A stretch of DNA of 64,000 nucleotides from Parachlamydiales bacterium (GCA_050302075.1 JBNLAH010000001.1:292157-356156), one strand, 5' to 3'. Shown: positions 50,377-60,017, counted from the stretch's first letter. A program made the numbers and translations. Notes: generated by a model not told the origin, from the letters alone.

Positions 50377-50420
50377 TGGGGCAACCAGGACTTGAACCCG
50401 GGACCAACGGATTATGAGTC
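50377..50420 (-). repeat. att site: duplicated tRNA 3' end (44 bp)
   Basis: Identical to 59944-59987; identity extends through ttaaagatg. Confidence 0.95.
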
Positions 50421-50537
50421 TTACCTATTTTGGCTACTAATGCCTATGATCCATAGTTAACAATCATATAATTAGCTTTTTAGGTTAAAAAAAATACTAA
50501 TACTAATTGTTTGTTGCTGATCATTTTTACTAATTTC

Positions 50538-50556
50538 TGTGCCACTAGTGTGCCAC
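50538..50556 (+). repeat. Putative integrase arm-type sites (TGTGCCAC twice, 11-bp period)
   Basis: Same motif and spacing recur at 59774-59790 (inverted) and 59852-59869. Confidence 0.65.
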
Positions 50557-50737
50557 TTTTTTTTTCTAAGTAACCGTAAATTTAGTGAAAGTTTCAGAAT
50601 AAATTTAGATATTTTCCACTAAGTCATTTTTCCTAAAAAAATATTTTGACAGTTTCCAAGAAATGAGAATAATATTTTTATGTAACAGACAGTCAGCAAC
50701 TGTTTTAAGTGTAAAAAATATTATTTAGAGAATCGAG

Positions 50738-50932
50738 ATGAAGTTTTGTAGTTTAAACTATTTTTTAAAGAAAAGAGAAGATACATGGCCAACCGAAAGA
50801 GCAATGCGTTGGATTATTTTTAATCGAGAATTTAATGGAGCAAAACGCTTTTTGAGAAAAGTTTCAGGAAGATGGTTTATTGATGAGGTGGAATTCGAAA
50901 ATTGGATAAATGAGGACGGAAATGATAAGTAA
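50738..50932 (+). CDS. Small DNA-binding protein, excisionase-like
   Basis: 64 aa; RKVSGRWFIDEVEFENWI wing-helix-like pattern; first gene of the replication operon. Confidence 0.55.
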   Translation: MKFCSLNYFLKKREDTWPTERAMRWIIFNREFNGAKRFLRKVSGRWFIDEVEFENWINEDGNDK

Positions 50933-51143
50933 TGAAAACAATAAAATTGAAAAGCTTTTGAATATTGCTAGCAGATTCTCAAATAGTTCAAATTCTGATT
51001 TACAAAGTTTAGGACGTTACATTGAAGATGAAATTCGAACTTTAGATGAATATGAAGAGTCTGATGAAAAAATACGTTTCTTGGATGAAATTAGATATCG
51101 TGTAACTAAAAAATATAAAGAAATTACTGGAGATGGATTATGA
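50910..51143 (+). CDS. Hypothetical protein
   Basis: 77 aa; 4-bp overlap with the primase-helicase start. Confidence 0.55.
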   Translation: MRTEMISNENNKIEKLLNIASRFSNSSNSDLQSLGRYIEDEIRTLDEYEESDEKIRFLDEIRYRVTKKYKEITGDGL

Positions 51144-57809: not shown

Positions 57810-58605
57810 AAACAGGCATGGTTTCTAAAAGAACTTTAGGAGTAATTTTTGTGTAGGTCTTAAGTTTTCTGCAAGCTCTATCAAAGTAAGAAATTAAGTG
57901 ATTTCTTTTAATATAATCTCCATGACTTGTTTGAAAGACTAGTTCATTATCTTTATAACCTTTTCTAGTCTTAAGATTTATTAAATTATCAATTATATGC
58001 CTTGGATACTTTATCAAATGCTTTTGAAAATTAATGCAGCTCATATTATTGCTAACTTGGTGCCATTTAAGATTTAGAACCTCATCTAGTGTTGGAGCTC
58101 CAAAGTATAAAACTTTTGCTAATAGAGACTCTCTTTCTGGCAATAATAAACTAAATTCAACAAAAAGTTCATAATTTAACTTTCTAAAAGCGCACTGCTG
58201 CTTATCTGGATCGTAAGGTAGTTGAAATATTCCTAGTGTTTTTTCATGCAAAAAAGAAAAAAAACTGATGATATTAGCAACAATTTTTTCTTGAATAGAA
58301 CGGTCTAATTTTGAATTAGTTCTTATTTCTTCTATGATGAGATGAAAACCACCTGATCTCAGTTCTCCTATAGTTTTTAGATATCCGAATTTATTAATAA
58401 AATTGATAAGAGTTTCGCTCATTAGATCAAAATCATTTGTTTTTGTTTTTGTTTCATTACTCCATAAAGTTAAAATTGGAAGTATATCTAGTTCATATAG
58501 TTTGTTTTCAAACTTGCCTCTAGATTCATAAAGATCTTGGGAAAGTTTATTAAAAAGTTTCATTTGCGATGGAGTATCTTTCATATCATCCGAAAATTTT
58601 TTCAT
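57781..58605 (-). CDS. Chlamydial plasmid pGP8-D/pGP7-D-like tyrosine-recombinase-fold protein, catalytically degenerate
   Basis: FHLIIEEI, IISFFSFLHEKTLGI, RESLLAKVL, DEVLNL, YPRHI, LVFQT and KITPKVL match pGP8-D as recalled; catalytic R, HxxR and Y absent. Confidence 0.7.
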   Translation of the reverse strand: MKKFSDDMKDTPSQMKLFNKLSQDLYESRGKFENKLYELDILPILTLWSNETKTKTNDFDLMSETLINFINKFGYLKTIGELRSGGFHLIIEEIRTNSKLDRSIQEKIVANIISFFSFLHEKTLGIFQLPYDPDKQQCAFRKLNYELFVEFSLLLPERESLLAKVLYFGAPTLDEVLNLKWHQVSNNMSCINFQKHLIKYPRHIIDNLINLKTRKGYKDNELVFQTSHGDYIKRNHLISYFDRACRKLKTYTKITPKVLLETMPVFINISQRVI

Positions 58606-59644
58606 TCATACTTCTTAAAACTGTTGAAGTGTGTGACTCACTTAAGTGAGCATATTTTTTAGACATTTGTATGCTCTTATGGCCTAAAATTTCTGCAATT
58701 TCAGTCAGTGAGGCTCCATTCATAGCTAAGTAACTAGCGCAGGAATGCCTTAAATCATGCCAACGGAAATCTTCAATATTTGCATTTTTAATGGCGGTTT
58801 CCCATGCGGACCTAAGATCTAAAGGTTTTTTATTATTTTTACTAGGAAATACTAATGTTGAAGTTAAAGGTCTGTTTCTTTCATGTTTTTTTAACATTGT
58901 AAGAGCTAAGTGTGTTAATGGAACTGATCTAGTTTCTCCATTTTTTGTTTTATAAAGAACAATTCTACAATTTTTTAAATCTACATTAGACCATGTTAAG
59001 TTCATTAGCTCGCTTTTTCTTATTCCTGTACTCAAAGCAATGACGACTGCTAGATAAAGATAAGAATTTTTGCTTTTTTTACACTCTATTAATAAAGCTT
59101 CTCTCTCTATATCGCTTAAATATCTTGATCTGCCTTTTGGTTCTTTAGGTTTTGTAATCTTTTGAACAGGGTTATCCTCAATCCATTGATATTCTTTGAC
59201 CGCTATACTTAATACATGAGATAGAGCAGCTAAGTATCTAACTACGGTTGATGGTGACTTTTTAGTACCTTTAGGTGTAATCTCTTGGCTCAGCTTATCT
59301 TTATATTCTGAAATTAAGGCAGGAGTTATATCAGCTAAAAGATATTTTCCTATTTTTTGTTTCCACCAGGCCAATTGATATCTTTTATCTTTAGCATTAT
59401 TGGGATAATTAGGTAAAAAATCAGCAGAATATCTTTCAATTAGATCATTTAAAGTGTGTTTTTTTGCCTCTGAAGTTTTAAAATGACGCCCTTCCCTTAT
59501 GGCTGCTTCGGTCTGCTGCGCCCATCTTTTCGCGTCATGTCTTTTTTCAAAAGTAGCTGTTTGAGCTGGATATCCTTTTATTCTTACCTGAACTCTGTAA
59601 GTTTTTTTTCCGTTTTTAGTAAGTCTCTTTTGTATATTGGCCAT
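58586..59644 (-). CDS. int: Tyrosine integrase (intact)
   Basis: TGIRKSE, KTKNG, WHDLRH, ILGH and KYAH: full R-K-H-R-H-Y set; adjacent to the tRNA. Confidence 0.95.
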   Translation of the reverse strand: MANIQKRLTKNGKKTYRVQVRIKGYPAQTATFEKRHDAKRWAQQTEAAIREGRHFKTSEAKKHTLNDLIERYSADFLPNYPNNAKDKRYQLAWWKQKIGKYLLADITPALISEYKDKLSQEITPKGTKKSPSTVVRYLAALSHVLSIAVKEYQWIEDNPVQKITKPKEPKGRSRYLSDIEREALLIECKKSKNSYLYLAVVIALSTGIRKSELMNLTWSNVDLKNCRIVLYKTKNGETRSVPLTHLALTMLKKHERNRPLTSTLVFPSKNNKKPLDLRSAWETAIKNANIEDFRWHDLRHSCASYLAMNGASLTEIAEILGHKSIQMSKKYAHLSESHTSTVLRSMNEKIFG

Positions 59645-59773
59645 AAGTATTCACAAATAAATATAATATACAAAAATATGCGAAAATTTGCAAACTCCGG
59701 ATTTTAAATCAGATGGTTTTTTTATTTTTTGTCACTAGTAGTTAAGAGGTTATTACATGTAAAAAATGTTAAT

Positions 59774-59869
59774 GGCACATTTAAGGCACACAAAAGTTGC
59801 TTTTTTTGCAAATTTTATAGAATTTTTGCGTTAATGAAAGTTTCTGACTAAGTGTGCCGTTTGTGTGCC
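59774..59869. repeat. Putative integrase arm-type sites
   Basis: GGCACA at 59774 and 59785; GTGTGCC at 59852 and 59863; 11-bp period. Confidence 0.65.
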
Positions 59870-59943
59870 AAATCACAAAAAGAATGTAGGTGGAAGTTAG
59901 GAGTTCTGATTATAAATAACTGAAATTTAAAAGATTAAAGATG

Positions 59944-60017
59944 TGGGGCAACCAGGACTTGAACCCGGGACCAACGGATTATGAGTCCGCTGCTCTAACC
60001 AACTGAGCTATTGCCCC
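59944..60017 (-). tRNA. tRNA with CAT anticodon, probably tRNA-Ile2 (lysidine); tRNA-Met not excluded
   Basis: GGGGCAATAGCTCAGTTGGTTAGAGCAGCGGACTCATAATCCGTTGGTCCCGGGTTCAAGTCCTGGTTGCCCCA folds as a cloverleaf; CCA not encoded. Confidence 0.93.

Follow-up and report, generated by a model that had tools for sequence, protein, structure and literature searches.

Introduction

The PICMI and 'Type C' PICI-like satellites (PMC10803314; PMC10085698) are small elements with a terminal integrase gene whose stop is overlapped by another gene; in PICMI, an AlpA-like small gene and a second small gene are followed by a primase or primase-helicase gene, accessory or defence cargo is carried and virion genes are absent (PMC10803314). 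Here we describe an element resembling them in these respects, from an uncultured Parachlamydiales bacterium, located at a tRNA-Met gene near the end of a 64,000-nt stretch of genomic DNA (GCA_050302075.1 JBNLAH010000001.1:292157-356156), which we call the window and in which positions are counted from the first letter. Beside a primase-helicase, the element encodes a family A DNA polymerase (PolA) of its own, and we consider it moderately probable that a chlamydial family of integrative elements, satellite-like and of PICI/PICMI-type build, has here a self-replicating member in which PolA has been added to the primase-helicase. Judged by gene content, what is new here is the polymerase and the host phylum, PolA being a rare add-on to the family.

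The correspondence with described satellites is one of build and presumably of working, and less one of individual genes. The PICMI integrase (PF00589 or a serine recombinase) has its counterpart in the element (PF00589, 6e-34), whereas in the position of the AlpA regulator (PF05930 or PF12728) stands orf64, which reaches no Pfam model; the DUF3987/DUF5906 primase is replaced by TOPRIM and AAA_25, DUF3987 being found only in PolA-bearing relatives; and the target is tRNA-Met instead of fis. From the PICI set the element has an integrase and a primase-helicase, with a regulator that is AlpA-like by position only, which makes it at most 'Type C' (PMC10085698). A small terminase (TerS), as in SaPI-type PICIs, is carried by relatives of the element in the slot where its own HGGxSTG protein gives a weak TerS PHROG match (1e-3). 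The polymerase sets it apart from these satellites, the term being absent from the main text of the SatelliteFinder paper. With three of the four mandatory PICMI features lacking and the PICI set reached at the loosest level only, we file the element as one that works like these satellites and not as a member of either group.

Other described systems share different parts of the arrangement. The tycheposons of Prochlorococcus are tRNA-targeting tyrosine recombinase elements of about 10-20 kb with tandem arrays and primase/helicase modules, in which terS-bearing PICI-like and cargo-bearing forms occur in one family and for which the text names 'polymerases, primases, helicases' (bioRxiv 10.1101/2020.12.28.424599); they belong to a different phylum, and the likeness is one of description. 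The 12.2-kb cyanobacterial plasmid pAL20118a (NZ_CP149438.1) combines a tyrosine recombinase with a DnaB-like helicase directly upstream of a PRK14975-type exo/PolA that is 34% identical to PolA of the element over 92% of the protein, but plasmids of its type are free circles with no tRNA integration, no orf190/HGGxSTG pair (see below) and a longer helicase (875 aa). A TOPRIM primase-helicase is paired with a proofreading family A polymerase in T7 gp4/gp5 and in apicoplast PREX (PMC10201439), from which the element differs in having two separate genes, in being bacterial and integrative and in its missing zinc finger; chlamydial fusion proteins at two related loci (L067, L071) exclude the helicase. 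SCCmec elements with CCPol-MP and the Cch/Cch2 helicase are also integrative and carry a family A-type polymerase and a helicase, but they have a serine recombinase, a CCPol without most of the exonuclease domain, a primase formed with MP, another PolA cluster and staphylococcal hosts (PMC10201439). Pipolins (PMC5695915) are integrative with a replicative DNA polymerase of their own, which is a primer-independent polymerase of family B with no such primase-helicase partner, in contrast to the family A enzyme found here.

Chlamydiae are obligate intracellular bacteria

 whose known mobile DNA consists mainly of one plasmid lineage; to our knowledge, no chlamydial phages other than small single-stranded DNA phages are in culture. 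With the chlamydial plasmids (PMC7846284) the element shares orf274, a derivative of Pgp7/8, and two PolA-bearing relatives (L036, L072) have ParA/Pgp5-like genes. Unlike these plasmids, it yielded no Pgp1 helicase homologue and has no ParA and no active Pgp7/8, and it is integrated via a tRNA-type integrase; no chlamydial plasmid matched the primase-helicase query. PMC7846284 mentions two chlamydial plasmids with a 'phage group' including terminase, does not contain 'primase', and has as its sole 'polymerase' an RNA-polymerase-associated protein. In the literature searched, outside which lie preprint supplements and Schoenfeld et al. 2013, we found neither a chlamydial element of this sort nor a satellite with a family A polymerase, in keeping with the suggestion of a first-pass annotation of the window that the type is possibly undescribed in Chlamydiae. 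A search on tailed phages of chlamydiae returned nothing relevant among the papers listed.

Element boundaries and gene content

The element is delimited by a 53-nt direct repeat, perfect over 53/53 positions, at 50368-50420 and 59935-59987, with 9,514 bp between the copies. The right copy comprises the 3' 45 nt of tRNA-Met(CAT) and 8 nt beyond the gene, from which sequence we read insertion by the element's tyrosine integrase at the 3' end of the gene, with regeneration of the tRNA end. The 33-nt att core occurs three times in the window and in none of 100 shuffles. Nine credible genes lie between the repeats, the G+C content is about 31% against 33.5% for the genome, and the 1.84-Mb, 89-contig assembly holds a single copy. 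The features are as follows.

50368-50420, plus strand: attR, the distal 53-nt repeat (copy of the tRNA-Met 3' end plus 8 nt), 100% identical to 59935-59987
50538-50554, plus strand: TGTGCC-N5-TGTGCC dyad, candidate arm-type site (P' arm), from a pattern count
50738-50932, plus strand: orf64, 64 aa, putative AlpA/Xis-like small DNA-binding protein, from position and weak alignment
50910-51143, plus strand: orf77 (from the list of open reading frames, ORFs), acidic small protein overlapping both neighbours; no Pfam, PHROG or NCBIfam match
51140-52999, plus strand: primase-helicase, 619 aa, with a zinc-finger-less N-terminal domain, TOPRIM, an AAA_25 (RepA/DnaB-like) helicase and a C-terminal helix-turn-helix (HTH)
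52979-53140: weak short direct repeats between the helicase and PolA genes, candidate origin only; two-copy, 14-34 nt, 70-93% identity, not significant alone
53068-55077, plus strand: family A DNA polymerase, 669 aa, with an exonuclease of the 3'-5' but not of the 5'-3' kind; translation possibly starting as late as ~53206
55132-56865, minus strand: ankyrin-repeat protein, 577 aa, cargo (Ank_2, 7e-31)
56977-57549, plus strand: orf190, of a family encountered in chlamydiae only, in the slot that holds TerS in relatives
57546-57809, plus strand: HGGxSTG zinc-ribbon protein, 87 aa, overlapping orf190 by 4 nt (NF041373, 1.1e-14)
57781-58605, minus strand: orf274, truncated and catalytically dead Pgp7/8-like recombinase (alignment A2), its start overlapping the integrase stop by 20 nt
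58586-59644, minus strand: intact tyrosine integrase, 352 aa, with an N-terminal arm-binding-type domain (Phage_integrase, PF00589, 6e-34; Int_N and SAM_5 weak; phrog_1, 2e-73)
59774-59790 (minus strand) and 59853-59869 (plus strand): two TGTGCC-N5-TGTGCC dyads, candidate arm-type sites (P arm), from a pattern count; also inverted repeat I2
59935-59987, plus strand: attL, the 53-nt repeat within the intact tRNA-Met gene, from the repeat match
59943-60017, minus strand: tRNA-Met(CAT), the integration target (ARAGORN; Rfam tRNA, 73.4 bits)

Overlaps join orf64, orf77 and the primase-helicase gene, a 4-nt overlap links orf190 to the HGGxSTG gene and a 20-nt one the integrase gene to orf274; because neighbouring genes overlap in this way, three co-translated units are suggested. 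The integrase retains its catalytic R, HxxR, H and Y. Searches of the nine ORFs against Pfam, PHROGs and NCBIfam gave no match to capsid, portal, tail, large terminase (TerL), relaxase or type IV secretion genes; no prophage-type lysis gene was matched in Pfam or PHROGs, and no coupling protein, partition gene or ParA in Pfam. The first-pass annotation had proposed an att-bounded compact tRNA element with an intact integrase and with no recognisable capsid, terminase or conjugation genes, and its outline is borne out for capsid, large terminase and conjugation genes alike. We regard it as settled that the element is real and recently integrated, with integration and replication genes intact. 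A chlamydial host agrees with the names of the orf190 homologues ('Chlamydiae bacterium') and with the recombinase of a related locus, L036, a full-length homologue of orf274 that is 48-57% identical to integrases of Criblamydia, Waddlia, Simkania and Chlamydia plasmids, as well as with the Simkania plasmid match of orf274 given below.

The small gene orf64 had been called excisionase-like. It belongs to a family of small ORFs always placed upstream of the primase gene in relatives (26-31% identity to those in L045, L042, L052 and L069); no Pfam (E <= 0.01), PHROG or NCBIfam match backs the functional name. As alignment A2 shows, orf274 has neither the box I Arg nor HxxR and lacks the tail that bears the Tyr; its only plasmid match is the Simkania pSn integrase, and dead paralogues like it stand beside the integrase in L073 and beside an active recombinase in L036 and L072.

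Exactly three TGTGCC-N5-TGTGCC dyads occur in the 64-kb window, against 0.03 expected, and 0 of 100 shuffles reached three. All lie within about 170 nt of an att copy, with the half-sites in 11-bp phase, and on the excised circle they would flank the att core on both sides. They are candidates for, and probably represent, arm-type sites of the integrase, because placement on both sides suits integrases with an N-terminal arm-binding domain. GTGTGCC alone was rejected as a signal (four found window-wide against 1.55 expected, not significant).

Replication genes

The primase-helicase matches AAA_25 (1.2e-22) and, weakly, HTH_7 in Pfam, as well as phrog_239, primase/helicase (1e-26). In the family alignment the TOPRIM Glu E217 (LEGEKD), the DxD (DCD, D260) and the Walker A GIGKT are all invariant, so the TOPRIM primase-helicase named by the first-pass annotation is present with its key residues. 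The closest helicase domain is that of L036 (55% identity), which also adjoins a PolA. A CHC2 zinc finger (CPAHxDxNPSLS...CFAGC) is found in four of six aligned relatives and is absent from the protein of the element. Residues 1-190 (51140-51700) form in its place an unrelated, apparently helical region, and only L052 is similarly divergent.

PolA was likewise correctly described as exonuclease-containing: it matches DNA_pol_A_exo1 and DNA_pol_A in Pfam, and the Exo I-III and Pol A/B/C residues (D108/E110, D443, R492/K496, H617-D618-E619) do not vary among 19 aligned sequences, the window protein among them (A3). Its best NCBIfam model is PRK14975.1-3, at 441.6 bits, under the 640 cut-off of that model, and it scores 272 bits with PDB entry 8jrb, 238 with the apicoplast Prex polymerase and 159 with Klenow. 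By these comparisons PolA is a member of an Aquificae/apicoplast-like subfamily, closer to it than to canonical Pol I, and the subfamily corresponds to cluster #8, 'Hot Spring 1' (PMC10201439). That survey lists the prokaryotic role of the cluster as unknown and notes primase fusions (Czernecki et al. 2023, PMC10201439); the one relative known to have been characterised for this PolA subfamily is the apicoplast primase-helicase-polymerase PREX.

The nearest protein to PolA among 5.8 billion is 45% identical. No close viral relative was found in IMG/VR (best 33-35%), and the best phage record reaches ~26-28% along most of the protein; among plasmids, cyanobacterial ones match best, at 34-37%. 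A scan of a genome collection with the single PolA protein yielded only a spurious 29-residue match, and a metagenome scan with the PolA alignment gave 80 loci, mostly ordinary PolA (best 43% over half), none of them near the other genes of the element, the patterns drawn from that alignment being too generic. In the phylogenetic tree, PolA groups with a Methanococcoides vulcani-type sequence and with sequences from cyanobacteria, and the Pol I of the same genome lies elsewhere. Six chlamydial PolAs form one clade, joined by one metagenome protein, with SH-aLRT support of 100, and the window PolA falls outside it on a long branch of 1.7 changes per site. Holding the seven chlamydial PolAs together was rejected by the approximately unbiased (AU) test (p 0.0006, lnL difference 99.4), for a group chosen after seeing the tree and with a long branch involved. 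On the tree, the window PolA is phylogenetically separate from the PolAs of other chlamydial elements.

A family of related elements in chlamydiae

Of 400 genomes sampled from the phylum, 38 hold homologues of the primase-helicase, counting the element's own; 33 are found at E <= 2e-46, five are weak, and all belong to one order. Gene content was counted in 20 of these loci by searching with the proteins of the element. An integrase homologue adjoins the primase-helicase in 13 of the 20, the YhcG nuclease is present in 7, the orf190 and HGGxSTG pair in 2 and PolA in 1. The tRNA-Met/DUF1207 locus is common to the window element, L041, L045, L048 and L049, and the other targets are tRNA-Asn, Ser, Phe, Lys or Tyr/Thr. 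The general layout comprises an integrase, an overlapping or abutting gene, an AlpA-like gene, a small gene, a primase(-helicase) and a packaging gene with cargo, in ~10 kb at a tRNA gene; PICI/PICMI-type satellites (PMC10803314; PMC10085698) and PICI-like tycheposons are laid out alike.

Repeats of tRNA ends delimit six loci (~10.4, 11.4, 11.2, 11.6, 12.5 and 9 kb), and the ORFs of five delimited elements (L041, L042, L045, L049, L052) were scanned. L041 (7e-12), L045 (3e-8) and L042 (9e-9) have TerS (phrog_2538) immediately behind the primase-helicase gene; in L052 a weak TerS is followed by a 499-aa TerL (phrog_2, 2e-32), and in L049 the orf190 and HGGxSTG pair takes this place. The rest consists of an HTH regulator and cargo (Mrr-helicase, Schlafen and SNF2, PvuII restriction-modification, VWA-PP2C-kinase, Tad2-like), and none of the five gave a match to capsid or tail genes. 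TerL homologues of ~500 aa are present in 27 of 400 chlamydial genomes, several within complete chromosomes and several beside a family primase-helicase.

The first-pass annotation had taken the element for a self-replicating, PolA-encoding satellite or integrative-plasmid type. A compact tRNA element with primase-helicase and PolA is indeed real, but it does not stand alone: it belongs to a widespread chlamydial family, among whose members PolA is optional. The same annotation would have yielded to the finding that the element is a fragment of a larger prophage with structural genes; relatives do carry TerS and TerL, while capsid and tail genes are missing from the scanned att-delimited ones. 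Small relatives with terminases and without virion genes point to a satellite rather than a prophage fragment.

This bears on another reading, in which a larger phage-plasmid or prophage lost the genes for terminase and virion and left the element behind, immobile, as a domesticated or slowly decaying island. The five att-delimited relatives of 10-12.5 kb without virion genes imply that small size is normal for the family, the compact layout recurs nearly unchanged in L069 and in the same order in L070 (tblastn), the repeats are perfect at 53/53, and the integrase, primase-helicase and PolA frames are open with every catalytic motif kept. Loss is nevertheless what one could see in the truncated, dead orf274, in the long PolA branch, in TerL standing next to PolA in L036 and L068, in the decay of such an element at the same site (island B, below) and in contig depth that gives no sign of excision or amplification. 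Taking both sides together, we find a remnant quite unlikely.

PolA loci

PolAs of this kind occur in 11 of the 400 chlamydial genomes, the element's own included. A primase gene lies directly upstream of PolA or is fused to it at 8 of the 10 other loci; of the remaining two, L074 is too short to judge and L070 was seen by tblastn only. The arrangements are these.

L036: AEP and AAA_25 primase with PolA, then TerS and TerL
L068, L069, L072, L073, L075: AEP and DUF3987 primase with PolA
L067, L071: Zn-ribbon/TOPRIM N-terminus fused to exo-PolA
L067, L069, L070, L074: orf190-like and HGGxSTG-like genes downstream of PolA
L068: TerL downstream of PolA
L072: TerS downstream of PolA (3.5e-11)

The compact counterpart L069 runs tRNA-Phe, Int, 437 aa, 89 aa, primase, PolA, orf190-like, HGG-like, host AcrB, and L070 has the same gene order (tblastn). 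L036 and L072 have, in addition, ParA/Pgp5-like genes and a Pgp7/8-type recombinase. Taken together, these contexts indicate that PolA is an exchangeable module travelling with a primase-helicase on chlamydial mobile elements.

Some of these loci deserve mention in their own right. In L067 (5002-7971, minus strand) and L071 (7918-10878, minus strand), zinc ribbon, TOPRIM and exo-PolA are fused into proteins of ~989 aa, TOPRIM being detected by Pfam only in L071; they recall the apicoplast PREX polyprotein without its helicase, and a helicase-like gene lies upstream in L067. L036 (contig C25 of genome G112, 12,023 bp) is plasmid-like, with ParA, active and dead Pgp7/8 recombinases, AEP-primase/AAA_25, PolA, TerS and TerL; no terminal overlap was found in the contig, which may represent a phage-plasmid of chlamydiae or else a satellite of large size. 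At L072, on the chromosome of genome G318, a block of ParA, Pgp7/8 recombinase, YhcG, TerS, PolA, DUF3987-primase and HTH_17 genes lies between two MatE fragments (~1450-15700 of the locus) and looks like an integrated plasmid-like element that split matE.

Loci of this sort raise the question whether the window element could be an integrative plasmid or episome without any phage, maintained as a circle at low copy number through its own helicase and PolA and moving rarely, with orf190 and the HGGxSTG protein acting as regulators or origin-binding proteins. The trio of helicase, PolA and tyrosine recombinase is that of the 12.2-kb pAL20118a, the best plasmid matches of PolA (34-37%) are cyanobacterial, orf274 comes from the chlamydial plasmid recombinase Pgp7/8, L036 and L072 pair ParA with a Pgp7/8-type recombinase, and Pfam and PHROGs recognise no terminase in the window copy. 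That copy, on the other hand, has no partition gene, and its depth equals that of the chromosome; the genes equivalent by position to orf190 and HGGxSTG in relatives are small terminases, and even the plasmid-like L036 carries TerS and TerL. We consider a phage-free plasmid unlikely.

Alternatively, the polymerase and helicase might serve the host, in anti-phage DNA synthesis or in repair, and the locus would then be a defence or repair island. The PolA loci speak for element replication instead: eight of the ten others couple PolA with a primase gene, and in the seven whose flanks suffice for a judgement (L036, L068, L069, L072, L073, L075 and, by tblastn only, L070) integrase, recombinase or packaging genes lie next to it as well. 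The cargo of the family is defence-like (YhcG/PDC-S02, restriction-modification, Schlafen, SNF2), and PolA matches the PADLOC PolA-like model within defence-associated reverse transcriptase (DRT) systems at 7e-38, but any family A polymerase should be expected to match that RTasPolA model, and we set the match aside as one at family level. With neither a reverse transcriptase nor another DRT partner found by Pfam or PADLOC, a defence role of the replication genes appears very improbable.

The orf190 and HGGxSTG genes

A large protein search returned eight orf190 homologues, one of them the window's own. Relatives of orf190 follow PolA or the primase-helicase in L049, L053, L067, L069, L070 and L074. 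Its AlphaFold model (pLDDT 79.5) has a beta-hairpin and, after it, five helices that include a long helical hairpin; the protein is conserved at its C-terminus (QQVFVTHV..GGKAIVG), in a part of low model confidence. We take the small N-terminal domain, helical hairpin and C-terminal strand to resemble the build of a small terminase, a likeness without support from fold or profile searches: in PDB and BFVD, Foldseek found no match at E <= 0.001, and a wide VIA search gave generic helical hairpins at Z <= 9.6.

The first-pass annotation had reported an HGGxSTG pair. The ORF at 57546-57809 does have the motif, with the domain pattern C...C...CxxH, but its co-occurring partner orf190 is a different protein. 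The HGGxSTG domain occurs in 19 phage records, mostly as the first gene, and in 8 of the 19 it is annotated as putative small terminase; the literature searched makes no mention of it.

Proposed mechanism and points against it

In the satellite-like scenario that we favour, the element would be excised by Int with the AlpA/Xis-like orf64, perhaps also with the dead recombinase orf274 overlapping int, for which a part in excision is suggested because its position equals that of the PICMI 'integrase-overlapping gene', a gene needed for excision there (PMC10803314). The excised circle would be replicated by a T7-like two-protein core of TOPRIM/AAA_25 primase-helicase and proofreading PolA. The C-terminal HTH of the primase-helicase might recognise an origin, possibly just downstream of its own gene, and with PolA performing synthesis the element would not have to borrow a host or helper polymerase. 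The weakest step is spread from cell to cell, which would most likely take place in the particles of a tailed helper phage, directed by orf190 and the HGGxSTG protein; a packaging role for the two may be proposed because the pair occupies the TerS slot of relatives. The ankyrin gene would be cargo.

A candidate helper, and no more than a candidate, is contig C8 of the same bin (L077-L079; 43,112 bp), which assembled circularly with a 77-bp terminal overlap and encodes a large terminase, major head protein, tail fibre, endolysin, RusA, exonuclease, DnaD-like loader and single-stranded DNA-binding protein. It looks like a complete tailed-phage genome, and it may come from another organism of the sample.

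Several observations weigh against this scenario. The iteron cluster that the first-pass annotation had listed did not materialise: Tandem Repeats Finder and a repeat search detected no iteron array or clear origin, leaving the weak two-copy repeats at 52979-53140. Raised coverage, which the same annotation had proposed as a check, is not seen either. In the probable source run the element contig has a depth of 24.1, the flanks 24 and 24.6 and island B 28.2; depths are those of assembled contigs in three runs of one study, two of which hold next to none of the stretch, and the source-run contigs end inside each att copy, the 53-nt repeat being longer than the contig word size. In DnaG/T7-type primases the zinc finger serves template recognition, and a primase-helicase without it may be impaired in priming or work differently. 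PHROG scans of 11 orf190 family members and hhalign against two TerS proteins established no link between orf190 and TerS, and the TerS PHROG matches of the HGGxSTG protein and two homologues are weak, from 1e-3 (window) to 8e-5. The long-branched PolA stands outside the chlamydial clade, the dead and truncated orf274 implies that some decay has occurred, and C8 resembles neither the element nor the remainder of the genome detectably, in protein or in DNA.

Implications

We put forward more tentatively the broader idea that environmental chlamydiae host tailed phages together with a PICI-like satellite family, that the present element is the first satellite with a complete minimal replisome, and that mobile elements are the natural bacterial home of the Aquificae/apicoplast-type PolA; this is possible, if rather doubtful as a whole. 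Were it true, terminase-bearing tRNA elements in about one in ten sampled genomes would make tailed phages and their parasites a part of chlamydial biology, and such elements would move cargo, for example ankyrin proteins and defence genes, among chlamydiae. The placement of PolA beside or in fusion with a primase or helicase at 8 of the 10 other chlamydial loci and on a cyanobacterial plasmid suggests 'replicase of small mobile elements' as a testable role for this polymerase. A satellite equipped with a polymerase of its own would rely on helper and host to a lesser degree than any of the satellite families in the literature examined.

Neighbouring island and other observations

Next to the distal end of the element lies an older, decayed one.

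46943-46975, plus strand: third att copy, the outer end of island B, 33/33 identical to the att core; ~52 nt aligned with 1 mismatch
46976-50367: island B, decayed older tandem element of 3.4 kb, recognised by the third att copy and an integrase pseudogene
47149-48234: YhcG PDDEXK nuclease of island B (Pfam; PADLOC PDC-S02, 3e-145)
48262-49104: S-adenosylmethionine methyltransferase of island B (Pfam)
49648-50223, minus strand: integrase pseudogene of island B, continuing frameshifted into 49217-49582 and 38% identical to the intact Int

At its N-terminus, the 'hydB' ORF in island B matches the inside of relatives' integrase genes in another frame. Because of the third att copy at 46943 and the decayed state of island B, the two can be read as a tandem array at the tRNA-Met site, of which the element is the newer unit.

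Just outside the outermost att copy, the G+C content falls to 24-29% (44500-46500), in a region with a 382-aa ORF (45097-46245) that has no Pfam, NCBIfam or PADLOC match. The ankyrin gene of the element has a paralogue elsewhere in its own genome (contig C2, 53316-53869), with 76% nucleotide identity over 554 nt, and the ankyrin protein itself has two hydrophobic segments, one near residues 90-112 and one near 233-253, both in the N-terminal third.

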